From positions 2,976,001-3,040,000 of the forward strand of contig OZ257142.1 of NCBI GenBank assembly GCA_965279035.1: a DNA stretch of 64,000 nucleotides, given 5' to 3'. A program made the translations under genes and the position numbers. Under the pieces are notes generated by a model. The model did not search any database. It saw only the letters and a program-made list of their open reading frames with translations, and was not told the DNA's origin. This document shows, one piece after another, positions 18,928 through 44,060 of the stretch; the stretch's first letter is position 1; each line of letters opens with the position of its first letter. This DNA is from Bacteroidia bacterium (lineage in GTDB: Bacteria > Bacteroidota > Bacteroidia > M30B66).

Positions 18928-18937
18928 ATTTTACCAC

Positions 18938-20701: not shown

Positions 20702-20753
20702 TGCTTGTTTTAGGATGTAGAATTAATCATATTTGTCGGAAGAAGTTTCATTT

Positions 20754-21823: not shown

Positions 21824-21824
21824 G

Positions 21825-24235: not shown

Positions 24236-24246
24236 GACAAAAAAAT

Positions 24247-24345: not shown

Positions 24346-24516
24346 GCAAAAATAGGAAAATGAACGTATGAAAGTTTGATATCGCTCTATTTTTTTGAAA
24401 GCGCCTATTATTCAAGTATTTATATTAAGCAGCTAATTAAGCAGTGCAAGAATCAAATGGAAAGGAAGGAATTTCGCATGCTGAAACTGTTATATTTGCC
24501 CCTAAATCAAATTAAA

Positions 24517-25062: not shown

Positions 25063-26006
25063 TGATCGACATTTCTGTTGTTGTTCCACTTTATAACGAG
25101 GAAGAATCCCTTCCTGAACTATGTGCCTGGATTGCCAAAGTAATGCAGGAAAACCAGTTTTCGTGGGAAGTTATTTTGGTGGATGATGGTAGTAGTGATT
25201 CTTCCTGGGAGGTGATCTCCAACTTACAAAAAGAAGATTCACATATTAAAGGCATTCGATTCCGCAGGAATTATGGAAAATCAGGAGCGCTCAATGTTGG
25301 ATTTGAGGCCTGTTCAGGAAATGTGGTTATAACAATGGATGCTGATTTACAAGATAGCCCAGACGAAATACCACAGCTTTATCGAATGATTACCGAAGAA
25401 GGATTTGATTTGGTAAGTGGTTGGAAGCAGAAACGATTTGATCCAATAACGAAGACAGTTCCTACTAAATTATTCAATTGGGCAGCGCGCAGAATGAGTG
25501 GAATTTATTTGCACGATTTCAACTGTGGATTAAAAGCCTATCGTGGTGAAGTGGTGAAAAGTATCGAAGTGTATGGAGAAATGCATCGCTATATTCCGGT
25601 GTTAGCCAAATGGGCAGGATTTAAAAAGATTGGTGAAAAAGTAGTTCAACATCGTGCTCGCAAATATGGAACTACCAAGTTTGGTTGGGAGCGATTTGTA
25701 AATGGCTTTCTCGATTTATTAAGCATCACCTTTGTTTCCCGATTTGGTAAACGTCCCATGCATTTATTTGGTTTGCTTGGGACCTTGAGTTTTATGATTG
25801 GATTTTTTATTGCGGCATATCTCACGTTTGCAAAATTTGCCCATCAAGCCTATAAAATGACCGAACGTCCTTTGTTTTATTTCGGATTGTTCTTTATGGT
25901 TGTTGGAACACAATTATTTTTGGCCGGTTTTCTGGGTGAATTAATTTCACGCAACGGGCATGATCGGAATTCTTATCAAATCAGAGAAAAAACGAGTAAT
26001 TTATAA
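25059..26006 (+). CDS. GT2 glycosyltransferase (ArnC-like)
   Basis: SVVVPLYNEE, VDDGSSD, RNYGKS, MDADLQDSP, HDFNCGLKAY, YGEMHRYIP, two C-terminal TMs. Confidence 0.93.
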   Translation: MMIDISVVVPLYNEEESLPELCAWIAKVMQENQFSWEVILVDDGSSDSSWEVISNLQKEDSHIKGIRFRRNYGKSGALNVGFEACSGNVVITMDADLQDSPDEIPQLYRMITEEGFDLVSGWKQKRFDPITKTVPTKLFNWAARRMSGIYLHDFNCGLKAYRGEVVKSIEVYGEMHRYIPVLAKWAGFKKIGEKVVQHRARKYGTTKFGWERFVNGFLDLLSITFVSRFGKRPMHLFGLLGTLSFMIGFFIAAYLTFAKFAHQAYKMTERPLFYFGLFFMVVGTQLFLAGFLGELISRNGHDRNSYQIREKTSNL

Positions 26007-26022: not shown

Positions 26023-28887
26023 TCAAGCACTTAATTTTTGAATAACGAGTTCTATCGTATTTCCAATGATTGGAATATGCTTTTTGAGTAAATCTAAATT
26101 ATGCTCTTCAGCAGCCTGTTCTGTTTCGGGTAAGATATCTTTCAAACTGATAATTCCCATGTCTTTGATTGATGGCTTTAAGCGGTGTGCATAAGCTTTC
26201 ATATCTGTATAATTCTCTTCTGCTAAGGCCTTTTTCAATTTTGCTAAAGTATTTGGTACTTCTTTTATGAAAATCGATACCATATGATTTAGAAATTCTT
26301 TGTCTCCCCTACTGAGTTTTTCGAGTTTTGATAAATCGTAAAGAGGAAAATCACTTGCTTGAATTTCAGATTGAACGATTGGTTCAATAGAAGCTGTTTG
26401 AGGCAAAATTTGAACGTCCGTTTTTAATAAACTCGTAATCTTCGCTATCAAATCTTCTTCTTCAAATGGTTTTGCTAAAAAATCGTTCATTCCACTTTCT
26501 TTGCATTTTATCTGCATAGGTAGAAGTACATTCGCTGTTAAGGCGATAATTGGAAATTCATTCCCATAGAGTTCACGAATCCTTCGGGTTGTTTCTAGTC
26601 CATCAATACCGGGCATTTGTATATCCATGAGAATAATATCCGGTTTGAATTGTTTTAATAAATCCAAGGCGATATACCCATCTTCTGCTTCGGTAAGTTC
26701 AATCCCATAAGGCATAAGCATCGAACTTGCAACAATTCTATTCGTTGGATTGTCTTCAACCAAGAGCACTTTTTTGCTTTTTAAATTGAAAATAGAATCG
26801 GGAAGAATGTTTTTTTCTTGTTGAATTGGTGCTGTTGAAATTTCAAATGGAAATTCAATAGTGACAGTAGTACCTGAACCTTTTTGACTACTCAAATTCA
26901 ATTTCCCATCCATCAATTTTACCAATTCACTGGTAATGGTCATTCCTAATCCAGTTCCACCATATTGTTTAGAAACACGTTGATCTTCCTGAGTAAATTT
27001 CTCAAATATTTTATTTAAGAAATCGCCTTCCATCCCAATACCAGTATCAGAGACACTCATCCGAATGAGTTGATTATTTCCTTCCGAACGAATTAAACTG
27101 CATTGAATGGTAATACTTCCTTCACTTGTAAATTTGATCGCATTACTTAATAAATTCATCATGATTTGATTGAGACGCGATGGATCTCCAATTAACCAAG
27201 GTGAAATGCGATTGTCGTAATTATAAAAAATGGCCACCCCTTTTTCTTCCGCTTTATATCCTAAAATATTGACCGATTTTTCTATGGATTCTTTTAAACT
27301 AAATTGAATTTTTTCGATGGTTAATTTGCCCGCTTCCAGCTTAGAATAGTCGAGCACATCATTTAAAATGACCAGTAAATTTTTTGCCGAATTATTAATA
27401 TGATTTAAGTATTTATCTTGAACTGGATCTAATTCTGTTTTTGCCATTAAAGCACCCAAACCAATGATAGCATTCATCGGAGTTCGAATTTCGTGGCTCA
27501 TATTAGCAATAAAGGAATCGCGTGCTATAACCGATTGATCGGCTCGTTCTTTTTCTTCAATTAATTCAGATTGAAGTTTCTTTTGATTGGTAATATCGAG
27601 GTGAATTCCAATAGAACCAATTTGAACACCATCATCATTAAAACGAGGAGCCCCAGAAATAAGCCACCATTTTTCTTCTCCATTTCGAATAGTAACAGGC
27701 ATTTCGTATGCATCTGAAATCCCTTTCTGACGTAAATTAATCTTCTCTTCGATTAATTCATCATGCGAATGAGAAATAAATAATTCAGATGCATTTTTAC
27801 CAATTAATTCATCCAATGAATAGCCACTCATTTTGCAAAAACTTTGATTGGCATATTGAATGGTTTCATCCGTATTGACTTCGAGAATCCCTAGATTCAT
27901 ATTCTCGATAATTGAACGGTATTTTTCTTCTCGCCTACGTAGCTTGTTTTCTTGCGTTTTTCGTTCGGTTATATCCCGGTATTTCCAGAGGTTTCCTCGG
28001 TATTCATCATCAATAAAAAGAGGAATGTAATCACGTTCAAATACGCGCCCATCAGCTAAATCTAATTCTTCATTTACTACAAGTTCTCTTTTTTCTAAAA
28101 GTTGTTTTATTCGTTGAATAAATAAATCAGAATCCAGAAATAATTGAGCAGTTTCTTTTGCTGTATTTTCACAATTTATTCCAATCATTTTTTCGGCTGG
28201 AACTGGAACTCGAAATAATTGACAGAATGTTTGATTCACTAAAGCGATATCTCGGTTTTCGTCTTCCACCAAAACACCCATTTGAATGTTCTCGAGAAGT
28301 CCAGAAAATCGACGTGCAATAATTTTAAATTGCTCCTCAATTACTTTTTGGTAGGTGATGTCGATTGTTTCACCTAGAATCAAAACCGGAACGCCTTGAG
28401 TATCACGTTCAATGATTTGTGCTTTTTCTAAAACCCAACGGTAATCACCATCAACAGTCATTAATTGACAGGTTGTTTGGATTGTATCTTCGAGATGATC
28501 TTCCGAATTAATTAAATCTACTATGATTGAATATCCTTCGGGATTTCCAATAAGACGAAGTTGAGTAATTACTTCATTTAATTCATCATTATGAATTCCG
28601 AATTTTTTACAAAATCCAGGAGAAAAAGAGGCGATTCGGTTTTTTATATCTAAATGCCAAATACCATCACCATCGAAATCAAAGCCTTTCGCTTCGGAGC
28701 GTTTACCACCAGGAGTTGAAAAAGCAACATTGTTTTTTAAGATCCGAGACGCATTTAAAGCAGTAGAAAATTTCTTTTCTAATTCATGAATTCGGCGTTC
28801 GGCTTTTTTTAATTCCGATTCAGCACGAATACGAGATTCTCGTTCGTTAATTAATACTTGCTTTAAATCATCCTCTTGATTTAACAT
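26023..28887 (-). CDS. Cytoplasmic hybrid sensor kinase (PAS x3, HisKA, HATPase, REC, Hpt)
   Basis: ANMSHEIRTPMN, NLLSNAIKFT, DTGIG, GGTGLG, VEDN..LMDIQMP, AHRLKPS; no TM segment seen. Confidence 0.93.
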   Translation of the reverse strand: MLNQEDDLKQVLINERESRIRAESELKKAERRIHELEKKFSTALNASRILKNNVAFSTPGGKRSEAKGFDFDGDGIWHLDIKNRIASFSPGFCKKFGIHNDELNEVITQLRLIGNPEGYSIIVDLINSEDHLEDTIQTTCQLMTVDGDYRWVLEKAQIIERDTQGVPVLILGETIDITYQKVIEEQFKIIARRFSGLLENIQMGVLVEDENRDIALVNQTFCQLFRVPVPAEKMIGINCENTAKETAQLFLDSDLFIQRIKQLLEKRELVVNEELDLADGRVFERDYIPLFIDDEYRGNLWKYRDITERKTQENKLRRREEKYRSIIENMNLGILEVNTDETIQYANQSFCKMSGYSLDELIGKNASELFISHSHDELIEEKINLRQKGISDAYEMPVTIRNGEEKWWLISGAPRFNDDGVQIGSIGIHLDITNQKKLQSELIEEKERADQSVIARDSFIANMSHEIRTPMNAIIGLGALMAKTELDPVQDKYLNHINNSAKNLLVILNDVLDYSKLEAGKLTIEKIQFSLKESIEKSVNILGYKAEEKGVAIFYNYDNRISPWLIGDPSRLNQIMMNLLSNAIKFTSEGSITIQCSLIRSEGNNQLIRMSVSDTGIGMEGDFLNKIFEKFTQEDQRVSKQYGGTGLGMTITSELVKLMDGKLNLSSQKGSGTTVTIEFPFEISTAPIQQEKNILPDSIFNLKSKKVLLVEDNPTNRIVASSMLMPYGIELTEAEDGYIALDLLKQFKPDIILMDIQMPGIDGLETTRRIRELYGNEFPIIALTANVLLPMQIKCKESGMNDFLAKPFEEEDLIAKITSLLKTDVQILPQTASIEPIVQSEIQASDFPLYDLSKLEKLSRGDKEFLNHMVSIFIKEVPNTLAKLKKALAEENYTDMKAYAHRLKPSIKDMGIISLKDILPETEQAAEEHNLDLLKKHIPIIGNTIELVIQKLSA

Positions 28888-29186
28888 TGCTGAATTTGAA
28901 TTTCTCCTGAAGCAATTAACTCATATAATTTTGTCTTTCCAATCTCGAGCAAAACAGCCGTCTTTACAACATTATAGCTATTCTCTTCGAGACATTGTTG
29001 AATGATTCTCCGATTAATTTCTTTCAAACTTAATCCACGATACAACACGCTTAAGAATTCTTTAGCTCCTTCAATTTCGGTTATTTCCTCTTCATTTTTT
29101 TTACATAACTGAATGAGAGAATCCGAATTCCAAGGATCACTTTTTTTGAGAACAATTTTCAATGCAGTATTTTTCATATGCTTCAA
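28881..29186 (-). CDS. Small Fis-type HTH protein
   Basis: C-terminal SLKEINRRIIQQCLEENSYNVVKTAVLLEIGKTKLYELI; overlaps both neighbours. Confidence 0.75.
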   Translation of the reverse strand: MKHMKNTALKIVLKKSDPWNSDSLIQLCKKNEEEITEIEGAKEFLSVLYRGLSLKEINRRIIQQCLEENSYNVVKTAVLLEIGKTKLYELIASGEIQIQQC

Positions 29187-30274
29187 ATTGTTACTCCAGT
29201 ATCAGTCATTTCATAGCGACGAATAAAGCGATACCAACGATTGAAATTAGTGATAGTATGCACAATCTTCGTGTAGGCAATCACAATAAAAAACTGAATA
29301 ATTAGAATAAAGAAAAGTGAAAATCCACTGTATATCATTCCAATAGTAAAAGGCAAAATACTGGTATGTAGTGTGAGGATTCTTAAGGTAGCAATTTTAT
29401 GAGGAATTCGATTGCGAATAATCCAGTGATGTAAATGGTTTCGATCTGCAGAATACGGCGATCTACCTTGTGAAATACGAAAGGCAAAAACACGCAGCGT
29501 ATCGGTAACTGGAACGATTAACAATGCTGATAAAATAGCTAAAGAATCGGCAGGAGAAAGCCATTTTTGGACAAGTTCATATTGGCGAAACGACAATCCC
29601 ATGGCGATGAAAAAGAATCCAAAAACAAGTGATCCACCATCGCCCATAAATACTTTGGCAGGTGACCAATTAAAGAATAAGAATGCTAGAACCATGGCGG
29701 CCCAAGTAACTGAAATCATAAATAAACCTTGATCAGCCGATAGATAACCAATGAATCCAAAAACTAAGAGATTTAACATGGCCATTCCGCCGGCTAAACC
29801 ATCAATTCCATCAATTAAATTAAATGCATTGGTAACACCAGTAACAGCTATAATTGTGAGAATTGCATCAAACCAAAAGGGTAATTCATTGAGTCCAAAT
29901 AATCCACCTAGATTATTAATGGTAATTCCGTTGATGACTAAAAATGCACCGCATCCGATTTGTATCATAAATCGGAATCCAGAGGAAAGATTGCGTTGAT
30001 CGTCCCAAGCACCTGTAATCATGAGCAGTAACAAAGGAGCAGAAACGGCAATGTGCTCATACCAAAATTCACGTACCGATCCAAAAATGAGGGTCATTTC
30101 AATCCAGGTAATTCCTAATGCCAAACCACCAATTGCAGGAATCGCCTTTTTATGGGTTTTACGTTCATCGGGCTTGTCTAATAAACTGAATTTATGAAAC
30201 AGTTTAATGAGCAAGGGAAGTTGGACAATCACGAGGATTGTTCCAGTAAGTAGTTCTATCCAGAAGCTTTTCAT
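29183..30274 (-). CDS. wecA: Undecaprenyl-phosphate HexNAc-1-phosphate transferase (WecA/MraY family)
   Basis: DKPDERKTH..PAIGG, WDD, NAFNLIDGIDGL, FMGDGGS, ADRNHLHH. Confidence 0.88.
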   Translation of the reverse strand: MKSFWIELLTGTILVIVQLPLLIKLFHKFSLLDKPDERKTHKKAIPAIGGLALGITWIEMTLIFGSVREFWYEHIAVSAPLLLLMITGAWDDQRNLSSGFRFMIQIGCGAFLVINGITINNLGGLFGLNELPFWFDAILTIIAVTGVTNAFNLIDGIDGLAGGMAMLNLLVFGFIGYLSADQGLFMISVTWAAMVLAFLFFNWSPAKVFMGDGGSLVFGFFFIAMGLSFRQYELVQKWLSPADSLAILSALLIVPVTDTLRVFAFRISQGRSPYSADRNHLHHWIIRNRIPHKIATLRILTLHTSILPFTIGMIYSGFSLFFILIIQFFIVIAYTKIVHTITNFNRWYRFIRRYEMTDTGVTI

Positions 30275-30277: not shown

Positions 30278-31525
30278 TCAACGTTTTTCAAAAAAGTGGT
30301 AAGTGTGACGTAAATGCGGTATTCCAAACTGATCAAATTCTTCTTTCCTAAATACACGAGAAGCAATGGATACCAATCGTTTTGAAGGGCGGCCTTCATA
30401 CACGCGTTTTACGAGATGCAAATAGCGCGAAGCGATTGTTTCCCATGTGTAGCGTTTTAATGCAATCTGTTTCATGACAGAAGCATTTTCGTTTAATTTT
30501 TCGATGTTGATATTGCTCAGAATTTCTGATAAGGTTCGAGCATCTTTAAAATAAATGGCATGTCCTTGCGTGGTGGTGACATTGTATTTTACACCAAAGG
30601 CAATCACAGCACAACCGAGATACATAGCTTCAACAAGGGAAGGATTTGTTCCACCAGCTGAATGACCATGCACGTAGGCTACAGCCGTGCTGCGCAATAC
30701 ATCCAATGTGCGTTGATCGTAGATTGGATCGAGAATGATCAGATTAGAAAATGTAGCATATTTTTCCCGAAGTGCTTTTCCATATTCGCTATGGTTCCAA
30801 TTTCCAACAAACACGTAAGTTTTATCGGTGAATTCGGAAAATGCTTTTAATAAAATGTGCACATTGTTTTCGGGTTCAATGCGACAAACACTGAAATAAT
30901 AAGGAGCATTTAAGAAAGGATATTTCTCACGATCCTCCGGAATTGGTTCTTGAAAAGAGGCATGATCAGCGCCATATTCGATAATATGACTCAGGCTCTT
31001 ATATCGAATCGCAGTATAATCCTGAATTGCTTCATTGTCGGCAATATCAGCATCGCTGAATTTTACAGCCAAATATTCCGCAAACCACAAATACCAACGT
31101 GCATATTTGCCCCATTTAGCTCGCTTCCATTCAATTCCATCGATAGAAACAATGAGCTTTCGTCGCGTAAACCATTTCACAAAAGGAAATAAAAATCCAC
31201 CACTTACGCCCAGTACTATTAATACATCCGAAAATAAAACGGCATGTAGTATACTCAAACAATCGTATAAAATGGACGATTTTCCATTTGCATCCAAGGG
31301 AATATAAACCAGTTTTGCGCCTTTATACGATTTTAAACGTTCCGATTTCTTATATTTTTTACCACTGCAATAGACTGTCATATCGCAGCTTTCGGACATA
31401 TTTGTTGCAAGATGCTCTGCCAATGTTTCAAAACCACCATAGCAGGCTGGCAATCCTACGGTACCTATTACGGCAACACGGGTTTTGCGCTTTTCTTTTC
31501 CGTTCGTTTGTTCTGGTGTTTTCAT
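30278..31525 (-). CDS. DUF1972/GT4 glycosyltransferase (WchF/Cps2T-like, possible rhamnosyltransferase)
   Basis: IGTVGLPACYGGFET, DGIEWKRAKW, RIEPENN, HGHSAGGTNPSLVEAM. Confidence 0.88.
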   Translation of the reverse strand: MKTPEQTNGKEKRKTRVAVIGTVGLPACYGGFETLAEHLATNMSESCDMTVYCSGKKYKKSERLKSYKGAKLVYIPLDANGKSSILYDCLSILHAVLFSDVLIVLGVSGGFLFPFVKWFTRRKLIVSIDGIEWKRAKWGKYARWYLWFAEYLAVKFSDADIADNEAIQDYTAIRYKSLSHIIEYGADHASFQEPIPEDREKYPFLNAPYYFSVCRIEPENNVHILLKAFSEFTDKTYVFVGNWNHSEYGKALREKYATFSNLIILDPIYDQRTLDVLRSTAVAYVHGHSAGGTNPSLVEAMYLGCAVIAFGVKYNVTTTQGHAIYFKDARTLSEILSNINIEKLNENASVMKQIALKRYTWETIASRYLHLVKRVYEGRPSKRLVSIASRVFRKEEFDQFGIPHLRHTYHFFEKR

Positions 31526-32571
31526 GAGTTCAAATCGGTATAAGAAATAGTTGAAACGGTATTTTCATCAATTGATTGACGAGAGAAATTGTGTGTTAAT
31601 TCGTGTATTTTATGATGTAGTGATTCATAGTTTCGTGAATCGATTAACCAACCATCATCGGGTTCTGAAACAATTTCTGCCGGACCACCAATAGGCGGAG
31701 CAATGACCCGAATGCCATAGGCTTTAGCTTCTAAAATGGTCATTCCAAATGTTTCTATCCATTGATCAGGCAGACTTAAATTCATGACTAAATCGGCTTG
31801 TTGATAAGCGGGATGCGTATTGCGTGTTGGTGATAGAATTTCGCAATTCGCAGGTGGTTTTTCTTTTTCAATAAAATCTTGAATATCTCCTTCGGAAGCA
31901 TTTAACATTAATCGAAAACGTACATGTGGAAAATCTTTGGCTAAGCGGGTAAAAACATACACGCCTTTATATTCTTTTAAACTACAAAGCATCAACACGG
32001 TGAAAGGGCCTTTCGGTTTCACTTTTCCGTGCTTTTTCACTTCGGCAAGAAACTCTTTATCCAAGCGATTATGGATAACACCTTGAATTGGTTTTTTAAA
32101 TTGAAAACAACTTTTCAAATAATGTGAAACAAAAATCATTTCACGGGTGCAATGCTCCGAAATGAAACAAAGAAAACGGAATAATGAAGCGGGTTTTACA
32201 CTTACTTCATGCATGTGCTGAATGGTATGAACACCCCGAATTTTCGCTGCTATTAATGCTCCAAATGGCAATAAGGTATTGACATGAACAGTATCATTCT
32301 TTTTCAGTTTTACTAATAAAGACGTAAATAAATACACCTGAACATAGAGAAAATTCAAGAGTGTAATATATTTTTTCGGGCTCCAGGAATAGGGTAAATG
32401 ATGATAGTGAACACCTTCAATATCCGACAGGAAGCCCTTGCTATTTGAAGTATACAGATGAACATCTTTTCCAGCTTCCACATAATCCAATAGTACCATT
32501 GAAAATACAAGAGGACTTCCGCTGATGTCGTTTAATAAATGAATGCCGTATAGTTTTCCTGAATTTTTCAT
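31522..32571 (-). CDS. GT4 glycosyltransferase
   Basis: HLLNDISGSP, HMHE, EYKG, ETFGMTILEA. Confidence 0.9.
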   Translation of the reverse strand: MKNSGKLYGIHLLNDISGSPLVFSMVLLDYVEAGKDVHLYTSNSKGFLSDIEGVHYHHLPYSWSPKKYITLLNFLYVQVYLFTSLLVKLKKNDTVHVNTLLPFGALIAAKIRGVHTIQHMHEVSVKPASLFRFLCFISEHCTREMIFVSHYLKSCFQFKKPIQGVIHNRLDKEFLAEVKKHGKVKPKGPFTVLMLCSLKEYKGVYVFTRLAKDFPHVRFRLMLNASEGDIQDFIEKEKPPANCEILSPTRNTHPAYQQADLVMNLSLPDQWIETFGMTILEAKAYGIRVIAPPIGGPAEIVSEPDDGWLIDSRNYESLHHKIHELTHNFSRQSIDENTVSTISYTDLNS

Positions 32572-33890
32572 TGTGAAATGGTATTTCCGGTTAAACTAAA
32601 AAGGGTTTCATTTTGATCGGATGATGATTGGGCATTTTGAGTATTTCCAGCAACTTTACGATAGATAGCATACAGTTCGTCTGCCCGGTTTTCCCAAAGG
32701 AAAGTGCTTAAAAATCGTTGCCGTGCTAATTGGCGTTCGTGCTGATAAAATGCTGAATCATGTTTCAATCGTAGGAGTTGATCTGCAAAGGCATTTTTCC
32801 AATCAGCATTCGGATTATACTCTATTTTCAATGCTGAATCCGGATGAATAAATCGTCCTGGACCACAATTATCCCAACATAAAACTGGTACACCATAACT
32901 CAATGCTTCTGCTACAACCATTCCTGCACCTTCGTGCGATGGGAAAAGAAAAACCGAAGTGGTTTGATAAATCTTTTTCAATTCATCCCTTGGAATCCAT
33001 TCGATAATTTCGAGTTGAGCAGAAATTCCAAGTGAGATTGCTAATGCTTTTAATTTGTGTTTTTCTGGTCCACTTCCAACGAGAATTAATTTAGCTTTAT
33101 GTTTTTCAGAATCTTTGAGTTGAATATAGAATTGATGAAATGCTTCTATCGTAATATCAAAACCTTTTAATCCAACAAAACGTCCAGCAGATAAAACAAT
33201 AAACTCATCTGTTTCAATCGGTTTATCAACTTCTTCGGATGCAACAGAAGGCAAAATGGAGTACTTATTTTTCAGTCCTAATTTATTCGCTGCTTCTTGA
33301 TGCATGCAGAAAATATGATCAGCCGAATTGCGTGTTATTTTTAAGAAAGGATCTAGGTACCAAAAAACATTTTTCAGAGTCCAAAGAAATCGATCCATAA
33401 TTAAATTCCGAGTCGAATAAAATGGACGAATAAATCCTTTAGGAATACGCGGATGATGTCCTACAGGTCCCCAAACAAAAGGCTTACGCCAAATCCAAAG
33501 AAAACTAGGAGTCCAATCGTTGTGGAAATTTAAATTATGAACCACATCCACTTGATTGCGCAATGATCGAAAATGAAGCGCTAATCCGAGTTGCCAGAAA
33601 TAATAATAAATGAGACTTAAAACGGGGCCTTTTTTCCAGAATAATAATTTCTTAGGCCAATCGTAATATCGGAATTCGATACGATCATAAAGTTCATTTA
33701 ATTCGGGATGTTCCTCTTGATATTTCTCAATTGCAGGACGATTGTTTTTCCGCGTGACAGCAATGACTTTGCAATTTTTTGCGATTTGCAAAACAAAATT
33801 CCAGCCCATACCATCTTCCGAACCTTTGAACGGATTGATGGCATAGGCAGAGGCAAACACAGTAATGTTCGGAGTAGAAGTGTTTATCAT
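32568..33890 (-). CDS. GT4 glycosyltransferase
   Basis: SAYAINPFKGSEDGMGW, GRFVGLKG, FPSHEGAGMVVAEA. Confidence 0.9.
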   Translation of the reverse strand: MINTSTPNITVFASAYAINPFKGSEDGMGWNFVLQIAKNCKVIAVTRKNNRPAIEKYQEEHPELNELYDRIEFRYYDWPKKLLFWKKGPVLSLIYYYFWQLGLALHFRSLRNQVDVVHNLNFHNDWTPSFLWIWRKPFVWGPVGHHPRIPKGFIRPFYSTRNLIMDRFLWTLKNVFWYLDPFLKITRNSADHIFCMHQEAANKLGLKNKYSILPSVASEEVDKPIETDEFIVLSAGRFVGLKGFDITIEAFHQFYIQLKDSEKHKAKLILVGSGPEKHKLKALAISLGISAQLEIIEWIPRDELKKIYQTTSVFLFPSHEGAGMVVAEALSYGVPVLCWDNCGPGRFIHPDSALKIEYNPNADWKNAFADQLLRLKHDSAFYQHERQLARQRFLSTFLWENRADELYAIYRKVAGNTQNAQSSSDQNETLFSLTGNTISQ

Positions 33891-34591
33891 GCAGCAGATT
33901 GTTGATCACGTTGTTTTAAAATCCGCGCAGGTACGCCGCCAATAACAGCATAGTCGGGAAAATGTCCGGTTACAACAGCTCCGGCAGCTATCACACAATG
34001 ATTTCCGATTGTTGCACCATCCAAGATGCTTACTTTAGAACCAATCCAACATCCCGAACCAATGACAATTCCTTTGCGCGTTACTCCTTGCAAACGGATA
34101 AGTTCTTCGGGATTTATAAATACATGGTTTTCGGGATGACAAGAAAAATATTGTCCAATGATACAGTCTGAACCAATCTTCAATCCTCCACCCCCACCTA
34201 AATAAGCAAACTCGCCCATTCCAACGCGATCGCCAATTTGAATTCCGATTCCAGGTTGATTAAGCGATGTTGATGCTACAATTTGACTATACGAACCAAT
34301 ACTTACGTTTTTACCAAGTTGAATACCTTGAGTACTTAAGGCTGAAAACAAAACATGGTCGCCAGCTTTAAGCAAACGACCATAGCGAAAGGAAGAAAAA
34401 TAACGAAAACGAACACCAGAACCGAGCATCATCATTTTAGGAGAACGCCCTCTGAGAAGGACTTTGAAACCTCTCAGTAATTGAAACACGGTTTGAATTC
34501 CAAAACTCCAAAGCATTTTGCCAGTTACGGCTTCATGCATGTTGAAGTCAGGATTTCGTACTTGAATGAGTCGAGTGTATAGGTGTTTCAT
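33887..34591 (-). CDS. Hexapeptide-repeat (LbH) O-acyltransferase
   Basis: IQIGDRVG, LKIGSDCIIG, ENH, IVIGSGCWIG..GATIGNHCVIAAGAVV..GGVPAR. ATG 34591 preferred (track 34642). Confidence 0.9.
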   Translation of the reverse strand: MKHLYTRLIQVRNPDFNMHEAVTGKMLWSFGIQTVFQLLRGFKVLLRGRSPKMMMLGSGVRFRYFSSFRYGRLLKAGDHVLFSALSTQGIQLGKNVSIGSYSQIVASTSLNQPGIGIQIGDRVGMGEFAYLGGGGGLKIGSDCIIGQYFSCHPENHVFINPEELIRLQGVTRKGIVIGSGCWIGSKVSILDGATIGNHCVIAAGAVVTGHFPDYAVIGGVPARILKQRDQQSAA

Positions 34592-37028
34592 TGCTTGTGT
34601 TACCCACCACATTACGCATGATGGATTCCACTGTTTCGCCAATTTCTACGTTTTCTATACATCGATACAGATGAGTATGATCTCCTTTTTGAAGACGAGC
34701 AAATAATTCGGTGTATTGTTTTGTGAGGCTGATAATAGTTTCTTTATCGAGCTCTTGTTTACGCTTTAAAATCACGTCTGGCGCAGCCCACAGGAAATAA
34801 TTAAATTCTGGTTTTTTAATAAATGGATAGAATTTTTCGGTGAATTTAGGATTTAATGCAATGTTACTTCTTCGACTATCATTGATAAAATCGAAGTAAT
34901 ATCGATCATAAAGCACAATGGTATTTTTTCTTACATAACGGAAATAAATAAACCACTGACCAAAAATATAATCGCAGAGGTAATAAGCAAAACGAATGAG
35001 TGATGAGATTTTACTTGAGTTTTGTCCTTGACGAGGTAAGGTAGAAACAGAGCGTTCTTCAGCTCCTTTTTTTCCATATTTCAAAGCACTGATAATAGGT
35101 AATATAGAAGGACGATGCCGAATAACAATAACGCGACGACGATGTTTCTTTTCGAGTTCTGTTTTAACAGCATCAATGATGGTTGATTTTCCAGCACCAT
35201 CAACTCCGCTGAATGTAATTAAGAATCCTTTTTCGCTGCGCATATTTTGAAGAATTTCGGTCCAATATCTGATTCTGTTTTTGATTTTAGAAAAACCTGA
35301 ATTTTCAGGACGATTTAAAACAGATTGAATAAGCTTCTTTTGCTCAATCTTATCAGGTTGATTGTGTGTCCAGATGAGATGTTTTTGAGGAATTAGAGCC
35401 CCATTGAGCGTGTAGAATAATAGCACATATTCCCTATTGGATTCTGGTGATGCATTGGAAATTCCATTGTGAGAAATGATTCTATTTTTAAGCACTTTCG
35501 AGGCATCCAAATATTCGATATGATTTCGTTTGAATTGAAATATGAAATCCAGATCGATTCTGCTACCATCCAATAAAATAACTTCCACCTGAAGCATTTT
35601 AATTAAATTCTTAATCACAACGTGTTTCACCCAAGAATGCTGTTTAAAAAAATCAATCATCTTTTGGGCATCAGCTCGGGTTGTGCACAAATCAATATCT
35701 GAATTTATTGGCGTATACGATAAATCGGGTAAATTGAATTTCAATAAGGCATATTCGAATGAAGAAATTTCCTTTTGAAAATCGATAAGGACAGATTTAC
35801 GAACTTCTTCATTTTGCACAGCAAGCAAATACTGAATGGATTGAGCCCAAGTTTCCAACAACCAGTTGACTTGCGTGTGCCATTTTTCTTGATTCGAATA
35901 TACATTCAGATAATAGGAACACACTCGATTGAGATAATGCATTTCGATGAGTGCCGGATGGATTTGATTGGATTTTAAAAACGAATCTACAGTAGGAATA
36001 GCAAGCATTTCCTGAATACGAGATCGGATTTGAGCAAAGGAAATTCGTTCAACTAAAATGGCTTGTTGATATACGTAATGAAAAAGATCTTCGAGAGGAA
36101 TTCCCTGTTCTTGATACATTTCCCAATCAAGAATCTGCAGTCGTTTGCCCAACATGCGGCAATTCCAAGGCGTGAAATCACCATGAACAGGAGCAGAATG
36201 AAACAAAGGATTGCTCAAACAAAATGATTGAAGTTTTGTAAAATCAACAATAAATTCAGGATTGAATTTTTTGGGATTTAAAGAAAATGTTTCAATCGTA
36301 GGTGATGTATTATTCAATCCACTCGAAACCCATTCAACAAAGCTCGAAACGTCCAATTGAGAAACTAAAGGTACTGATTTGGCAGATTCTCCTTTTAAAG
36401 AAGTTTGAGAAAAATTGGATGAATTATTTTTATTGATTGAAAAGGGATAATCAAAAAAACGTTCCGCCGAAGATGCTTTTAAATTGCTTAATGCTTTGTT
36501 CTCATTTCCGAGATTTTGTTTTGCAATTTCAGTGAAGGGGAATTTATCAAAAACAACATTTCCATTCTCATCGATTGTCCGCAAAATGGCTTTACGATTC
36601 GGTCCAACTGTACCAGTAAAAACTGCCCAAATTCGATTAGAAGGATCGCAATATTCAAAATCAGCTACTTGTATTATTCCTTGTTTAAAAAACCTGCCAA
36701 GTCCAAGTTTAAAGCTGAATTTTGCAGCTAAAACAAAGAGTTTACTTTTAAAATTTCCTTGATTATAAAAATGAATAAAATTAGGCTGAGAAGCATTTGC
36801 TGACCAAAGCCAACGGGTTGTTCCATCAGAATTATAAATACAATGAAAAGTGAGAATGGATTTGGAACTTGATTTTCGAATTAATCCAAAAGCTTTTAAT
36901 AATTCAATATCAAAATTTTTATCTTCTTTGAAAGAATTAATTGTTGTATCAAGTTTAACTTCAGAATGAAGTCTTTCATTTTCTGATGAAGCAGACATGT
37001 TAAATGAAAGAGATAGCGCCTTTTCCAT
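34548..37028 (-). CDS. Multidomain protein: APH/choline-kinase-like + nucleotidyltransferase-like + thymidylate-kinase-like P-loop
   Basis: HGDFTPWN..ILDWE (about 36185-36120); YALLK..SDIDL..RIDLDF (about 35755-35545); SGVDGAGKST..HRP..LYDRYYFD..KRKQEL (from about 35210). Confidence 0.75.
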   Translation of the reverse strand: MEKALSLSFNMSASSENERLHSEVKLDTTINSFKEDKNFDIELLKAFGLIRKSSSKSILTFHCIYNSDGTTRWLWSANASQPNFIHFYNQGNFKSKLFVLAAKFSFKLGLGRFFKQGIIQVADFEYCDPSNRIWAVFTGTVGPNRKAILRTIDENGNVVFDKFPFTEIAKQNLGNENKALSNLKASSAERFFDYPFSINKNNSSNFSQTSLKGESAKSVPLVSQLDVSSFVEWVSSGLNNTSPTIETFSLNPKKFNPEFIVDFTKLQSFCLSNPLFHSAPVHGDFTPWNCRMLGKRLQILDWEMYQEQGIPLEDLFHYVYQQAILVERISFAQIRSRIQEMLAIPTVDSFLKSNQIHPALIEMHYLNRVCSYYLNVYSNQEKWHTQVNWLLETWAQSIQYLLAVQNEEVRKSVLIDFQKEISSFEYALLKFNLPDLSYTPINSDIDLCTTRADAQKMIDFFKQHSWVKHVVIKNLIKMLQVEVILLDGSRIDLDFIFQFKRNHIEYLDASKVLKNRIISHNGISNASPESNREYVLLFYTLNGALIPQKHLIWTHNQPDKIEQKKLIQSVLNRPENSGFSKIKNRIRYWTEILQNMRSEKGFLITFSGVDGAGKSTIIDAVKTELEKKHRRRVIVIRHRPSILPIISALKYGKKGAEERSVSTLPRQGQNSSKISSLIRFAYYLCDYIFGQWFIYFRYVRKNTIVLYDRYYFDFINDSRRSNIALNPKFTEKFYPFIKKPEFNYFLWAAPDVILKRKQELDKETIISLTKQYTELFARLQKGDHTHLYRCIENVEIGETVESIMRNVVGNTSNETPIHSTHSSTKS

Positions 37029-38353
37029 CAGGTAGAACTAAGTTGAGATGATTGATCTGATTGAAGCCAGGCGTATTTCTTTTGTCGTATTTTCAATTTT
37101 ACACGTTCGCGAAGACTCAAGGTTTGAGGCAATTGCATGGTGATATAGAAAATTATTAATTGGTAAAATAAAATACCATAATTGGTTTCTCCAAAAATTC
37201 CAAACTCGGTAAAACTATTAATGAGAATTGGAATGAACATTCCTAAGATCATCAGTTTCTTATCGTTTACTTTCTCTGTAACAGTGGCTTTCAACGTAAA
37301 AAACAACTGAAATAAAACGATAGTAAATCCAATAAAACCTAAATTCATTAAAACTTGAATAAAGGTATTATGTGTCATTTGTCCGGCGTATGTGTGAACA
37401 CCTTGAAAATAGTCTTTATAGGCAATCCGCATAAAACCAAATCCGAGTAAAGGTTCTTTGGGCAAACCTTCTGTTATCAATGCTTGCCAAAAAGGTAAAC
37501 GACCAGTCATCGACATTACTTCATCTAAACCACCTGCATTTTCTTTTACAATCATTTTCTCCAATGCAAGCGGAATCGCCATAAAGGAAGAAGCATACAT
37601 GGCAATTTTTAATTTCACATTGGAGCTTTGTCGAATATGAAAAAATGCAATTAATAAAGCACCAATCGTACTTGATCGTGAACCAGTAAGAACCAATGCC
37701 CACAACAAAAGAAGCACTTTAATGATGGTCCATACTTTCCGATGATTTCGATATAAATTGAAAATTAGACAGGAAATTCCAACAGCGCAAAGCATTCCAA
37801 GTTCGTTTGGATTCATGAAAAATCCACCCAAACGCGCTTCTTCACCACCATGAGTAAGTCGGTAAAAATCATCTGGATTGATATACATGCCCACTAAGAA
37901 TATCAAAATCATCAGAAATACAGCATTACCTGCAACATGATATAATTTAATTCCACAATCGGGGAAATATCCATCGAGTAATATGAAACACTGAACAAAG
38001 AAGAAAGCGAAGATTAAACCTTCAAAATCCATGATCCACTGTAATGAGCTATAGCCCAAATTCGTAGACCAGAGAAAGGAAATTAATCCTAATGCTAAAT
38101 AGGCAGAATATAAAAACGGGCTTAATCCAAACTTCCAAGATATCTTGCTGGAAGCGCCATGAGCAACTATGTTGTTACGCACCCAAATGATTAACATGGT
38201 CATGCTAAATCGGGTGATGATTTTAATAATACGGGTGATATTGATGTTTTCGCTCCAAGTGAAAAATCCGGCGAGTTTAATAAACAAGATTATAAGCAGC
38301 AAGGTTTGCAGCCGTTTAAAAAATCTCAGTTTATCCTCTTCGGAACGTATCAT
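37028..38353 (-). CDS. wzy: Wzy polymerase / O-antigen ligase family
   Basis: About 12 TMs; RLGG..NPNELG, LTGSRS, TGRLPFW, PLLGFGF, HNTFIQVLMNLGFIG; operon context favours a polymerase. Confidence 0.8.
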   Translation of the reverse strand: MIRSEEDKLRFFKRLQTLLLIILFIKLAGFFTWSENINITRIIKIITRFSMTMLIIWVRNNIVAHGASSKISWKFGLSPFLYSAYLALGLISFLWSTNLGYSSLQWIMDFEGLIFAFFFVQCFILLDGYFPDCGIKLYHVAGNAVFLMILIFLVGMYINPDDFYRLTHGGEEARLGGFFMNPNELGMLCAVGISCLIFNLYRNHRKVWTIIKVLLLLWALVLTGSRSSTIGALLIAFFHIRQSSNVKLKIAMYASSFMAIPLALEKMIVKENAGGLDEVMSMTGRLPFWQALITEGLPKEPLLGFGFMRIAYKDYFQGVHTYAGQMTHNTFIQVLMNLGFIGFTIVLFQLFFTLKATVTEKVNDKKLMILGMFIPILINSFTEFGIFGETNYGILFYQLIIFYITMQLPQTLSLRERVKLKIRQKKYAWLQSDQSSQLSST

Positions 38354-39474
38354 ATACTCAAAGCACGTTGATAAATGGAATTAAAATCCTTGAGTATTTT
38401 TTTCCAGTTGAAGTTCGATTCAACCATAGCTCGAGAACGAATTTGAAGTTCTTGAGGAGCAGTATGAATGTACATTCTGTAGGAAGCAATGAGTCCTTCC
38501 AGCATTTCAATTTTGTTCGTATCCGAAATAACAATACCAGCTTTAGACTGACGGATTTCATCACCTAAATTAGTTGCTTCAGAAATTAAACACGGTATTC
38601 CCATAGAAGCTGCTTCGAGCACGGCTGTAGGCAGACCTTCATTACGACTTGGATGAACAAATAGATTCAATTGTGCAAGTAAACCATCCTTTTCGGCACC
38701 AAAGCGACTACCCCAAAACGTAATTTTTTCTTTAATCCCAAGTGTTTCTGCGCGTTGCTCAAGTGAGGTACGTTCGGGACCATCACCAATTATCCAAAGA
38801 TGGGCTGTAGGAACTTCATTCAGAAAGAGTGTAAAAGCGTCAAGTAAAACATCCAAACCTTTGGTATATACATCAACCCGTCCACAAAAACCAATGAGGT
38901 AATTGGAAGTCGCAGAATTTAAAATAGCTGCATGTTCGCCAAATAATTCAAATCCATAAGGAACACGTTGTATTTGAATGCCTTTTAATAAATGATTGAG
39001 TCCATCTGATTCGCTTTTACCTAATACGTGAACAATGGCAGCTTTTTGCAACATCGATTGTTCAAAGAGGCGAAAATAAATGGCTTTCGACATTCCACTT
39101 TTTCTCCAAGCGATGCGGTTGTAGCTTCCATGAGGAGTGAAAATAAATTTCTTACCATGCGCAGCTAAATAATTAGCGATTGAATAAAAAACGGGAATAA
39201 ATCCACCATGCAAATGAAAAACAACATCATCCGAAGTTTCCAAAATTGCAAGCTTCATGAATTCGGGAATAAAAAACGGAAATCTATACTTTTTAAAAAG
39301 TACAGTTTTAAAATTCCGTTCAGGATAATCGTGTTCAAGAGAATTGGAAATACCCCAAACCTGAACAGGGATGCCTGCTTTAGATTGTTCAGTAGCTAAA
39401 TTATAGACTACTTTATTCACCCCATTCATACGCTGAGGATTTACTTTTCCTAATGCGATATGGATAATTTCCAT
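38350..39474 (-). CDS. GT4 glycosyltransferase
   Basis: NGVNKVV, HLHG, TPHG, GRVDVYTKGLD, PSRNEGLPTAVLEA. Confidence 0.92.
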   Translation of the reverse strand: MEIIHIALGKVNPQRMNGVNKVVYNLATEQSKAGIPVQVWGISNSLEHDYPERNFKTVLFKKYRFPFFIPEFMKLAILETSDDVVFHLHGGFIPVFYSIANYLAAHGKKFIFTPHGSYNRIAWRKSGMSKAIYFRLFEQSMLQKAAIVHVLGKSESDGLNHLLKGIQIQRVPYGFELFGEHAAILNSATSNYLIGFCGRVDVYTKGLDVLLDAFTLFLNEVPTAHLWIIGDGPERTSLEQRAETLGIKEKITFWGSRFGAEKDGLLAQLNLFVHPSRNEGLPTAVLEAASMGIPCLISEATNLGDEIRQSKAGIVISDTNKIEMLEGLIASYRMYIHTAPQELQIRSRAMVESNFNWKKILKDFNSIYQRALSI

Positions 39475-40685
39475 GCGAAATGTTTTTTACGGTAAAGGAA
39501 GATGATCCAGATACTTGTCATTAATATTTGACTGAGCATCATTCCAGCAATGATACCGGCCGATTGATAAGTCCGAATAAGAAAACTTGCAGAAATTAAA
39601 ATCAGAACTAATGCAGCAGCATGTGCAATAAAATAAACATGATTATATCCTGAAGCACGAATTAAAACTCGAATTGGGTATGCAATTAGAATGAGGAAAT
39701 ACAATAAAGCAATCCAAAGATGAAGAGGTTCTGTTATTTCTTGAGGACTAATTAATTTAGCTAAGAATGGGAAGAACAAAGCTAAAAGCACCAATAATCC
39801 AGCAACAGGTAATAAAAAAGCTGCAGAGATTCTTAAAACAAATGAAGCTTTATCACCTGAACGTCCATTCCATGCCGCCACTTTAGGAACTGCGTAATTT
39901 TCGTATGCTTGAAGGAAAATATTTAACAATCCAAATAAATACTGTGTTAAACGAAGCAGTCCGAGTGCAGATGCGCTTATCCATGCTCCAGCAGCCATCA
40001 ATAAATAGTTGGAACTACTCCATTGAACTACCGAAGTAATCACCATCCATCCTGCTGTGGAAGCTGTTTTCTTGATGTAATATCCTTTCATTCGTCTTCC
40101 CGATGATGTAGGTTTGAGGATGAAAAGGAAAAGTAATCCAGTTAAAGAGGATCCTCCTAAAATGAGAAGAGCTTGTGCAGGGTGAGTAGGAGATAAAATT
40201 AAAATTGCCCCTCCAAATAAAAGCACATTTAATCCATCAATTATTAAAAGATTTAATCCTGGATAAAGGATAATACAGAGTTTACGAAGCAAATCAGATA
40301 TAAGCCAAATAAAAGAGACTAAAAATAATATTCCAAAATGCAAAGAAGGATTGTAAATGATTTGAAATAAAAACTCAAATATGATTGATAATATTATTGC
40401 AGAAGGAAATGCTAAAAATAGAATGGTTCCGGTGTATTTTCTTCTGGAAGTTTCTCCTAGTTTACCAAGGAAAACTTGTGCAGGTTGAATAAATAATGCT
40501 TGTTGAAATGACATCAATAACATCATTCCCAAATAAACTAATGCATAAGTTCCGTATCCTTCGAGTTGTAATTTCCAAGCAAGTAAAAAATTACTAAGAA
40601 AACCGGCAGCACTAATGAGCGATTGATCAGCTATAAGAAGCAATCGTGCATCTAAATTCCTCAGCCATGTGTATAAATTTTTCAT
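39450..40685 (-). CDS. wzx: Wzx-like flippase
   Basis: ADQSLISAAGFLSNFLLA..GYGTYAL N-terminus, about 12 TMs, position in a wza-wzc operon. Confidence 0.75.
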   Translation of the reverse strand: MKNLYTWLRNLDARLLLIADQSLISAAGFLSNFLLAWKLQLEGYGTYALVYLGMMLLMSFQQALFIQPAQVFLGKLGETSRRKYTGTILFLAFPSAIILSIIFEFLFQIIYNPSLHFGILFLVSFIWLISDLLRKLCIILYPGLNLLIIDGLNVLLFGGAILILSPTHPAQALLILGGSSLTGLLFLFILKPTSSGRRMKGYYIKKTASTAGWMVITSVVQWSSSNYLLMAAGAWISASALGLLRLTQYLFGLLNIFLQAYENYAVPKVAAWNGRSGDKASFVLRISAAFLLPVAGLLVLLALFFPFLAKLISPQEITEPLHLWIALLYFLILIAYPIRVLIRASGYNHVYFIAHAAALVLILISASFLIRTYQSAGIIAGMMLSQILMTSIWIIFLYRKKHFAWKLSISH

Positions 40686-43607: not shown

Positions 43608-44060
43608 TTAAAACATTTTGGTAATAGAAGACAAAATGCCAGCAAAACTGCGCTTACGACGAAGTTGAATTTCTCTCAAGTAATTGTTCAAACGTGTAAT
43701 TACTTCTGTTAAATGATCAAGGTCATTATCGTCTTTTATGATATAGTCGAAAGCTCCGTATTTAAGAGCGTCCACAGCTGTTTTCATGTCTTTCTGAGCC
43801 GACAAATAAATCACAGGAATATCAGGATTCTGACGTTTAATTTTTTTCAATACTTCCAATCCATCAAAAGGCTGCATCGAATGGTCGATAATAACGGCAT
43901 CCGGTTCATCCATTAATTGATTTAAGAAATCCTGACTATCTTCAAATAAACGAACTTCTTTCACGCCAATATTGCGAATATGTCGCTCGTACATCGCAAG
44001 GCAATGAGGATCATCGTCGAGTAAAAAAATACTGTTCAGAATTTGCGTATTCGTTTTCAT
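43608..44060 (-). CDS. Single-domain response regulator (receiver only)
   Basis: FLLDDDP, IIDHSM, DGLEVLKKIK, LSAQKDMKTAVDALKYGAFDYIIK; no output domain. Confidence 0.9.
   Translation of the reverse strand: MKTNTQILNSIFLLDDDPHCLAMYERHIRNIGVKEVRLFEDSQDFLNQLMDEPDAVIIDHSMQPFDGLEVLKKIKRQNPDIPVIYLSAQKDMKTAVDALKYGAFDYIIKDDNDLDHLTEVITRLNNYLREIQLRRKRSFAGILSSITKMF

Follow-up and report, generated by a model that had tools for sequence, protein, structure and literature searches.

Wzx/Wzy pathways are the main bacterial route to capsules, O-antigens and biofilm polysaccharides, and the cytoplasmic accessory enzymes known from them are, for the most part, sugar-nucleotide enzymes, acyl- and pyruvyl-transferases and the Wzc/Wzb phosphorylation pair. 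Phospho-substituents of glycans are built by the LicA/LicC/LicD phosphocholine pathway and by the Campylobacter O-methyl phosphoramidate (MeOPN) pathway (Cj1418, Cj1416, Cj1415). Here we describe a gene for an 826-amino-acid (aa) protein with three predicted active sites (P0001, 'FUS'), located in an exopolysaccharide (EPS) operon within a 64,000-nucleotide (nt) stretch of a Bacteroidia bacterium genome (assembly GCA_965279035.1, contig OZ257142.1, positions 2,976,001 to 3,040,000), referred to below as the window. The protein shares with both pathways the logic of a kinase and a nucleotide-transfer step, and with the MeOPN pathway a P-loop kinase as well, but those pathways use separate proteins and nucleotidyltransferases (NTases) of a different fold. 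A second likeness is to WbdD of Escherichia coli O9a and to POMK with fukutin/FKRP, in which a protein-kinase-like kinase phosphorylates a growing glycan, POMK working alongside NTase-fold phospho-alcohol transferases; WbdD differs in serving an ABC-transporter pathway and in carrying a methyltransferase. The system as a whole resembles that of enterobacterial common antigen, which is likewise WecA-initiated and dependent on Wzx, Wzy and a co-polymerase, with a locus conserved clade-wide instead of varying between strains, but it differs in its patchy distribution (~2.5% of sampled Bacteroidota genomes), its own two-component system, its pseudo-kinase co-polymerase and the three-enzyme protein itself.

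Four departures distinguish this system from the Wzx/Wzy pathways described so far: invariant gene content, an unusually conserved polymerase, a mostly degenerate co-polymerase kinase domain and an obligate protein with three nucleotide-using sites. The protein is predicted to be soluble and cytoplasmic and, from structural models, to combine a small-molecule-type kinase, a polymerase-beta (pol-beta)-type NTase and a dTMP-kinase-like P-loop kinase. We propose, with a probability of about 0.35, that it tailors the undecaprenyl-diphosphate-linked repeat unit by means of its first kinase and a coupled NTase/P-loop step.

Analysis of the distribution of the gene revealed a single conserved system. 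In a scan of 185,579 species, each represented by one genome, 502 stretches encoded a relative of the three-domain protein. Among the loci fetched, 56 were 19 kb or longer and were searched by tblastn with the window proteins (Table 1); in these, the gene belongs to a WecA-initiated Wzx/Wzy cluster of 12-13 genes whose order is identical in 51 loci, spanning many Bacteroidota orders; the count for the glycosyltransferase (GT) gene GT1_374 (55/56) includes weak cross-matches onto GT1_440 in four loci without GT1_374. The five long loci without the Wza-to-Wzy half come from genomes in which the Wzy-type gene was found elsewhere in four cases and the Wzc-like gene in all five. The Wzy-type protein is 45-67% identical across Chitinophagaceae, Weeksellaceae, Flavobacteriaceae, Balneolaceae and cytophagal genera (Spirosoma, Fibrella), and identity of this order between such distant families is very unusual for a Wzy. 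Among 401 evenly drawn Bacteroidota genomes, the three-domain gene was present in 10 and the Wzy type in 7, all of them among the 10. Thus, the EPS operon of the initial annotation is no ordinary, variable EPS locus, and the three-domain protein is an obligate, single-copy core part of one conserved Wzx/Wzy system, and in the loci fetched its homologues, whether fused or split, were found only in this cluster type or in reduced derivatives of it, the point that this annotation had proposed to survey. A typical Bacteroidota cluster was also seen in metagenome-assembled genomes labelled Bifidobacterium breve (L086) and Halioglobus sp. (L159), labels that probably reflect faulty binning or labelling in public records.

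The open reading frame (ORF) and all of the motifs from which the initial annotation had deduced three activities lie where it placed them, and the three catalytic-looking domains occur in the order it gave, as judged by structure prediction, fold search and family scan. The annotation had also noted overlaps with both neighbouring genes: the ATG shares one base with the TGA of the upstream Wzy-type gene (TGATG), and the downstream hexapeptide acyltransferase ORF, as listed with a TTG start, overlaps by 95 nt. Homologues of the acyltransferase for the most part begin to align only at its residue 18, which makes ~44 nt the probable overlap.

Catalytic residues are conserved throughout the family. 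Across 118 aligned full-length homologues (mean column identity 39%), D284, N289, D301, E303 and E176 of the first domain, D444, D446 and D494 of the second and G608-D610, G611, G613, K614, T616, D708 and R709 of the third show no variation, and at least 90% of the sequences have H282 and K162; this conservation argues that the motifs are not chance. Of 176 protein pieces from 166 loci, 143 keep all 28 catalytic and motif sites scored (allowing up to 2 deviations), and the 33 deviant pieces are either contig-cut or split pieces, in which the residues of their own part are intact, or proteins of the reduced modules described below. By itself, the window protein scores below threshold in Pfam (Thymidylate_kin, 26.1 bits with a cut-off of 27; APH, E 0.034), so the domain calls could not be confirmed from Pfam alone; they were confirmed by structure and by a scan of 33 family members, which matched Thymidylate_kin in 32, APH in 22, TCAD9 in 7 and RIO1 in 4.

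A word-indexed search returned at least 876 related proteins of 454-1446 aa (E<=1e-3). The best 120 of these are nearly all 770-890 aa long with 90-100% query coverage and, where named, are Bacteroidota proteins under the annotations 'thymidylate kinase', 'phosphotransferase' or 'hypothetical'. An AlphaFold2 model of the whole protein, built from the 118-sequence alignment, reached a mean pLDDT of 89.7 and a pTM of 0.84, the latter suggesting that the domains are packed in a fixed arrangement; disorder is limited to residues 1-34 and 812-826. In the ESM Atlas we found the family's own clusters and, as leads only, one cluster of 780-aa proteins with mostly Acidobacteriota labels (0.97) and 'bifunctional' APH+AAA_33/Zeta_toxin proteins (0.76-0.80). 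A full-text literature search found no description of the family or of the cluster, and the passages seen of a lipocone paper (PMC12419801) have no bearing on the three-domain family. The folds of all three domains are already known; what is new is their fusion, an exclusive NTase subfamily and the protein's obligate membership of a clade-wide Wzy system whose co-polymerase is a pseudo-kinase.

The first catalytic domain, predicted to be an APH/choline-kinase-type kinase, is preceded by an N-terminal extension in which N66, R72 and W73 of an NxDGxxRW motif are invariant. In a Foldseek comparison of the whole model with the PDB, kinase matches included the macrolide 2'-phosphotransferase MphH (5uxd, E 1.3e-6) and LicA (4r7b, E 4.3e-6, TM-score (TMt) 0.54), with further matches to APH(2'')-Ib (4dca), MphB (5uxa) and the methylthioribose kinase MtnK (2pul). 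The domain shares with APH, macrolide phosphotransferase and LicA kinases the bilobal protein-kinase-like fold of the PF01636 clan, the Brenner motif HxDxxxxN of the catalytic loop (here HGDFTPWN), the metal-binding Asp (D301) of DWE and a Lys-Glu pair (K162-E176), and it has a Gly-rich loop, GTVGPNRK; it differs from them in the extra conserved N-terminal module of ~85 residues, in its fusion to two more enzymes and in its restriction to one polysaccharide system. With 14.3 bits, the window protein falls short of the Pfam APH gathering threshold of 23.2, and the APH matches of the 22 family members have E<=0.01, the best being 2.7e-10.

The middle domain, taken together with its helical subdomain, is predicted, on a moderate match, to be a pol-beta-type NTase. 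Folded alone (residues 405-598) it reached a pLDDT of 96.6, and comparison with 48,161 chains using VIA-align retrieved JHP933 (4ok0, Z 9.7, root-mean-square deviation 3.6 over 142 aa), ANT(2'') (4xje, Z 7.9), MenT1 (8an4, Z 7.9), TM1012 (2ewr, Z 7.7) and LnuA (4wh5, Z 6.8), followed by small alarmone synthetases and terminal transferases (Z 5-6.4). NTase-fold proteins account for most of the 50 rows listed, and we regard the match as moderate because a single row exceeds Z 8. Foldseek returned four TUT7 chains (E<=1e-3), then MenT1, TM1012 and JHP933. The model shows the alpha-beta-alpha-beta-beta-beta core of pol-beta NTases, with the DxD pair D444/D446 (SDIDL) and the third carboxylate D494 on the expected strands (445-449 and 490-496), all three being invariant together with R410 and K430. 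The domain therefore does have an NTase fold, the point on which the initial annotation had made its proposal depend. In common with JHP933, ANT(2'')-Ia, LnuA, TM1012 and MenT1 (Z 9.7-6.8), it combines the NTase core and a helical C-terminal subdomain with a DxD pair and third carboxylate on predicted strands, but it differs from these small enzymes in two respects. An hG[GS] motif ahead of the DxD is usual in the superfamily, and G[GS] is absent from the middle domain, which has YALLKF there, including the invariant K430. In addition, the sequence type appears to occur almost only within the three-domain architecture: a search of 1.84 billion proteins with the domain found 305 representatives (E<=1e-3), and among the best 150 of these, 120 are 768-910 aa long with the domain in mid-protein and 30 are shorter. 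FKRP/LicD-type transferases are not among the 50 fold matches listed for the middle domain, although a relationship to them may exist.

These folds bear on the idea, put forward in the initial annotation after the example of LicA and LicC, that the protein is a soluble assembly line in which the kinase phosphorylates a free alcohol or sugar, the NTase converts the product into a nucleoside diphosphate (NDP) donor, the P-loop kinase phosphorylates it further or recycles the nucleotide, and an operon transferase installs the activated group. Matches of the first domain to two kinases of free small molecules, the choline kinase LicA and 5-methylthioribose kinase, are in keeping with this idea, as are the conservation of all three sites wherever the full system is present and the lack of any donor-synthesis gene in the operon or the window; the annotation's statement that no nucleotide-sugar synthesis gene in the operon explains the protein holds for the rest of the window too. 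However, such a line needs an NTase that acts on a phosphate ester, and the middle domain is nearest in structure to O-nucleotidylyltransferases that act on sugar hydroxyls and to a toxin that modifies tRNA, that is, to enzymes that move nucleoside monophosphates to hydroxyls or RNA ends. The phosphate-ester nucleotidyltransferases LicC and Cj1416 have a different fold, as do the enzymes that make CDP-choline, CDP-glutamine and NDP-sugars. Nor does the operon encode an obvious transferase for a non-sugar substituent besides the acetyltransferase, and no LicD-type or phosphoramidate transferase was recognisable among its proteins. The fold of the middle domain and the substrates of its solved neighbours thus weaken the soluble assembly line, which we consider unlikely.

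The third domain carries the P-loop GVDGAGKST, in which the motif residues are invariant, an RHRP motif (637-640), DRY with invariant D708/R709, and a lid with R756 and K757. dTMP kinases are its top Foldseek matches (2plr, E 2.7e-7; 3hjn, TMt 0.71; 4qgh, TMt 0.73; range 0.60-0.76), and a phmmer search of the PDB aligned it collinearly with 2plr across residues 599-759 (E 1.8e-4). It shares with dTMP kinases (PF02223/TIGR00041) the nucleoside monophosphate kinase fold (TMt <=0.76), a P-loop with the Asp typical of TMK, an RxxP after strand 2, DRY and a basic lid, and these motifs line up collinearly with those of the S. tokodaii enzyme. It differs in that it scores below the curated cut-offs (PF02223, 26.1 versus 27 bits; TIGR00041, 26.7 versus 83.25 bits, over the P-loop region only), is fused, is not a housekeeping enzyme and is lost together with the export half of the cluster.

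The public annotation of many members as 'thymidylate kinase' or 'phosphotransferase', and the presence of resistance enzymes among the fold neighbours, could be read to mean that a housekeeping thymidylate kinase or an antibiotic-modifying enzyme was fused and placed here by chance. We regard this as highly improbable. Whereas a housekeeping kinase is expected once per genome, the gene occurs in 10 of the 401 sampled genomes and so cannot be the tmk of the phylum; carrier genome G404 encodes a canonical tmk besides it (152.7 bits); in reduced modules the P-loop has been destroyed or is missing; and the fixed gene position and strict co-occurrence with one Wzy type speak against a chance location. 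In the search of five carrier genomes with TIGR00041 and PF02223 that yielded the G404 gene, tmk was weak or absent in the other four, and two of the five genomes did not return the fusion protein either. The same models found no tmk in G001 and G002, the genomes behind loci L005 and L026, and also missed it in 1 of 14 reference genomes of a control set, so this result reflects either a divergent tmk or a limit of search sensitivity.

Natural dissections of the gene point to the domains that act in concert. When shorter proteins were searched, many of ~434 aa proved to align to residues 410-808, that is, to the NTase and P-loop kinase, and in this split lineage all seven fetched loci carry a separate kinase gene directly upstream (starting at residues 18-60 and ending at 403-406). 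The split thus falls at residues 403-410, between the first kinase and the NTase/P-loop pair, with cluster order unchanged and catalytic residues intact in both halves.

A second kind of dissection is found in reduced modules, which occur in the three carriers without the Wzy type (G015, G030 and G098) and in three more Flavobacterium loci. These modules contain a sigma-54 response regulator, a FIST protein, a hybrid kinase (43-45% identical to that of the window over the aligned part), a single-domain regulator, the three-domain gene or a shortened form of it, and GT1_440 with or without GT1_349, and they are without Wza, Wzc, Wzx, Wzy, the acetyltransferase, the DUF1972 GT and WecA. Homologues of the hybrid histidine kinase are present in all seven reduced-module loci examined (L088-L090, L094-L096 and L100), and the single-domain response regulator lies directly upstream of the three-domain gene. 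GT1_440 is next to the gene in L088, L089, L090, L095 and L100, and GT1_349 is kept in the same loci apart from L089; by its retention in reduced modules, GT1_440 is the gene most tightly linked to the three-domain gene.

The three active sites have fared differently in these modules. The P-loop kinase is destroyed, with GK of the P-loop replaced, or truncated in all six distinct proteins (L088, L089, L090, L095, L096 and L100), whereas the catalytic residues of the first kinase are kept in five and lost in L089 only. The NTase carboxylates are intact in one of the six, conservatively or partly changed in three (QDD, EDN) and lost in one, and the NTase domain is cut off in L100, a protein of 431 aa. 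A FastTree phylogeny with Shimodaira-Hasegawa-like support, which omitted L094 and L131 as duplicates of L090 and L088 and dropped pieces with fewer than 330 residues in region 60-590, placed the reduced case from Chryseobacterium beside full-cluster Chryseobacterium (support 97) and grouped the reduced Flavobacterium cases with a full-cluster strain of F. succinicans, so that reduction arose at least twice, once in Chryseobacterium and once in the Flavobacterium succinicans group. Ratios of nonsynonymous to synonymous substitution (dN/dS) between reduced copies and their full sisters are 0.10-0.15 for the kinase and 0.09-0.16 for the NTase fold, compared with 0.045-0.14 for full-to-full pairs and 0.81 for the P-loop remnant of L088, all rough values because dS is saturated; synonymous sites of L089 are saturated as well (proportions of differing sites, pS 0.69-0.81 versus pN 0.29-0.39). 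Taken with the split lineage, these results indicate that the first kinase can exist apart from the other domains, keeping company with the two GT4 enzymes and the two-component system, and that the NTase and P-loop kinase stay fused, with the P-loop kinase dispensable once the half of the system devoted to lipid carrier, polymerisation and export is gone.

The reduced modules bear on the soluble assembly line in both directions. Their retention of the kinase, the NTase fold and two GTs without lipid-carrier machinery is what a soluble donor pathway could leave behind, but GTs are also kept in modules with NTase carboxylates partly replaced (QDD, EDN) and the P-loop kinase lost, which would be odd if the GTs needed the product of all three steps.

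In tailoring of the lipid-linked repeat unit, by comparison, the protein would act on the cytoplasmic face ahead of flipping. Its first kinase would phosphorylate a sugar hydroxyl on the part built by the two GT4 transferases, and the NTase and P-loop kinase would form a coupled, nucleotide-dependent pair that transfers a nucleotidyl or phospho-group to the glycan, the P-loop kinase acting on the nucleotide by-product or on a nucleotidylated intermediate; the step carried out by this pair would count only if the unit goes on to polymerisation and export. The solved enzymes closest to the first and middle domains modify sugar hydroxyls of small glycosides (MphH/MphB, APH(2''), ANT(2'') and LnuA), and the gene sits in mid-operon between the polymerase and the acetyltransferase/GT block, both of which argue for tailoring. 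The initial annotation also offered an alternative, phosphorylation of the glycan or control of its chain, which is close to this reading and still a candidate.

Several points weigh against tailoring. The folds, conserved catalytic residues, fixed operon context, strict co-occurrence and pattern of domain coupling were observed, whereas the substrate, the order of the steps and the chemistry (glycan phosphorylation or nucleotidylation) are what we infer from them, and the role proposed for the P-loop kinase is a guess. We know of no well-known precedent for a nucleotide-bearing glycan in Wzy-dependent pathways, and the residues following DRY that in TMKs presumably recognise thymine appear, in the alignment with 2plr, to be replaced. 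The L089 protein has lost the catalytic residues of all three sites and its ORF is still intact at 598-599 aa, which hints at a non-catalytic role. The reduced modules, in which a first kinase and GTs persist with no initiating transferase, flippase or polymerase nearby, fit a soluble or regulatory role at least as well, and in full and reduced clusters alike the gene is found with a hybrid histidine kinase and a single-domain response regulator.

The last two points, together with the state of the Wzc-like co-polymerase, raise the question of regulation. Bacterial tyrosine kinases (BY-kinases) are marked by a Walker A GK[ST] and a C-terminal tyrosine cluster. In the Wzc-like protein of the window, Pfam finds Wzz and GNVR only, and its C-terminal BY-kinase-like domain has a degenerate Walker A (TGNQKEF). 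Among 52 orthologues, GK[ST] is found in 5, GK in 19 and no GK in 33, and 47 have at most two Tyr in their last 25 residues. No gene for a Wzb-type phosphatase was seen in the operon. One may therefore picture the three-domain protein as a regulatory enzyme under the operon's two-component system, standing in for the apparently lost tyrosine-autokinase cycle of the Wzc-like protein and controlling polymerisation or export, or the GT4 enzymes, through protein phosphorylation or nucleotidylation or a nucleotide signal. Apart from the degenerate Walker A and the lack of a phosphatase gene, this picture draws on the constant company of the hybrid kinase and response regulator, the latter directly upstream in reduced modules, on the matches of some family members to the protein-kinase-like families RIO1 (4/33) and TCAD9 (7/33), on the intact but catalytically dead L089 copy, and on MenT1, a fold neighbour of the middle domain that modifies a macromolecule. 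On the other hand, it is small-molecule kinases rather than protein kinases that the first domain matches best in fold, and many EPS loci own a two-component system without any such link. In reduced modules, moreover, the first kinase is still under purifying selection without Wzc and Wzy, which argues that this domain, at least, does not act on them. A regulatory enzyme of this kind thus seems to us a doubtful explanation.

A bolder reading, which we put forward as a long shot, is that the NTase/P-loop pair does chemistry new to Wzx/Wzy pathways. The pair might place on the lipid-linked unit a nucleotide- or pyrophosphate-linked mark, whether transient or permanent, that licenses flipping or polymerisation, or it might form a nucleotide-based switch in place of the Wzc tyrosine-autokinase cycle, degenerate here, and the cyclic di-GMP control of other phyla. 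The first kinase would act at the GT4 stage in both. If either were true, the protein would be the founding member of a new class of multi-enzyme controller or tailoring proteins, serving a clade-wide 'common' polysaccharide of Bacteroidota.

Whichever way the question is settled, polysaccharide assembly would gain either a new glycan modification or a new control of polymerisation, and the misleading public annotation 'thymidylate kinase' would be corrected. The system is accessible at the bench, since it occurs in at least 502 species-level genomes that include cultivable Flavobacterium, Chryseobacterium, Pedobacter, Spirosoma and Fibrella, and the split forms and reduced modules indicate which domains work together.

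Pfam and NCBIfam analysis of the neighbouring genes placed the three-domain gene within a Wza/Wzc/Wzx/Wzy operon, in agreement with the initial annotation. The operon lies on the minus strand and begins with the response regulator; its genes are given in order of transcription in Table 1.

Table 1. Operon genes in transcription order, domains and motifs of the three-domain protein (residue numbers, res), matches in long loci, and extents of three reduced modules in the coordinates of their own loci.
Feature	Position	Strand	Basis	Long loci with a match (of 56)
Single-domain response regulator, first operon gene	43608..44060	(-)	Pfam, alignment	53
Short Wza-type outer-membrane export protein, Poly_export + SLBB, 249 aa	42856..43605	(-)	Pfam	51
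Wzc-like polysaccharide co-polymerase, Wzz + GNVR, 723 aa	40682..42853	(-)	Pfam, NCBIfam	51
Polytopic membrane protein, 411 aa, putative Wzx	39450..40685	(-)	very hydrophobic throughout; position conserved in 51/56 loci	51
GT4-family glycosyltransferase 'GT1_374'	38350..39474	(-)	Pfam, NCBIfam	55
Wzy-type polymerase, 441 aa, Wzy_C	37028..38353	(-)	Pfam	51
Three-domain protein P0001 ('FUS'), 826 aa	34548..37028	(-)	ORF, ATG start, translation	56
N-terminal extension, res 45-130, ahead of kinase N-lobe	36639..36896	(-)	secondary structure, invariant columns	
APH/choline-kinase-type (protein-kinase-like) kinase domain (predicted), res 131-403	35820..36638	(-)	Foldseek, Pfam, residue invariance	
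HGDFTPWN, res 282-289	36162-36185	(-)	coordinates checked	
DWE, res 301-303	36120-36128	(-)	coordinates checked	
Pol-beta-type NTase-fold domain (predicted) + helical subdomain, res 405-598	35235..35816	(-)	domain model, VIA-align, Foldseek	
SDIDL, res 443-447	35688-35702	(-)	coordinates checked	
D494, last residue of IDLD	35547-35549	(-)	coordinates checked	
dTMP-kinase-like P-loop kinase domain (predicted), res 599-811	34596..35234	(-)	Foldseek, phmmer, PF02223	
GVDGAGKST, res 608-616	35181-35207	(-)	coordinates checked	
DRY, res 708-710	34899-34907	(-)	coordinates checked	
Hexapeptide-repeat O-acetyltransferase, WbbJ/WcaF-like	33887..34642	(-)	Pfam, NCBIfam	54
GT4-family glycosyltransferase 'GT1_440'	32568..33890	(-)	Pfam, NCBIfam	55
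GT4-family glycosyltransferase 'GT1_349'	31522..32571	(-)	Pfam, NCBIfam	54
DUF1972 glycosyltransferase	30278..31525	(-)	Pfam	54
WecA-like initiating phospho-N-acetylhexosamine transferase (Glycos_transf_4)	29183..30274	(-)	Pfam; TIGR02380 E 3.9e-49, below cut-off	54
Fis-type HTH_8 ORF, 101 aa, between WecA-like gene and hybrid kinase	28881-29186	(-)		5
Hybrid histidine kinase (PAS, HisKA, HATPase, REC, Hpt)	26023..28887	(-)	Pfam	42
Reduced module, locus L088	1-13500			
Reduced module, locus L089	7500-18000			
Reduced module, locus L090	900-14100			

The receiver domain of the response regulator is intact (D15, D16, D59, S87 and K109). E. coli Wza has a C-terminal outer-membrane helix, which the Wza-type protein of the window, given its shortness, probably lacks, and no beta-barrel partner for it was recognised among the operon proteins. 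The polytopic membrane protein, which had no match in Pfam or NCBIfam, is the probable Wzx flippase of the system and may represent a divergent Wzx family. The DUF1972 GT scores 181.6 bits against the Cps2T beta-1,4-rhamnosyltransferase model NF046071, below its cut-off of 500. The small HTH_8 ORF, with homologues in only 5 of the long loci, resembles the DNA-binding tail of a sigma-54 activator, and a full-length activator is present in the reduced modules.

Outside the operon, the window also carries type IX secretion system (T9SS) sorting domains and GldL/GldM, in line with its origin in a Bacteroidota genome. Directly upstream of the response regulator lies the gene for a 1936-aa protein (44500-50310, minus strand) that has at least 13 PKD repeats, and a secreted 1006-aa protein (59007-62027, plus strand) combines a T9SS sorting tail with CotH kinase-like, lamin-tail and chitobiase-C/Fn3-associated domains. 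Finally, a second glycan-related group adjoins the operon (18887-26006), comprising two PMT_2 membrane glycosyltransferases (ArnT/PMT-like), two GT2 enzymes and a DUF4199 protein.

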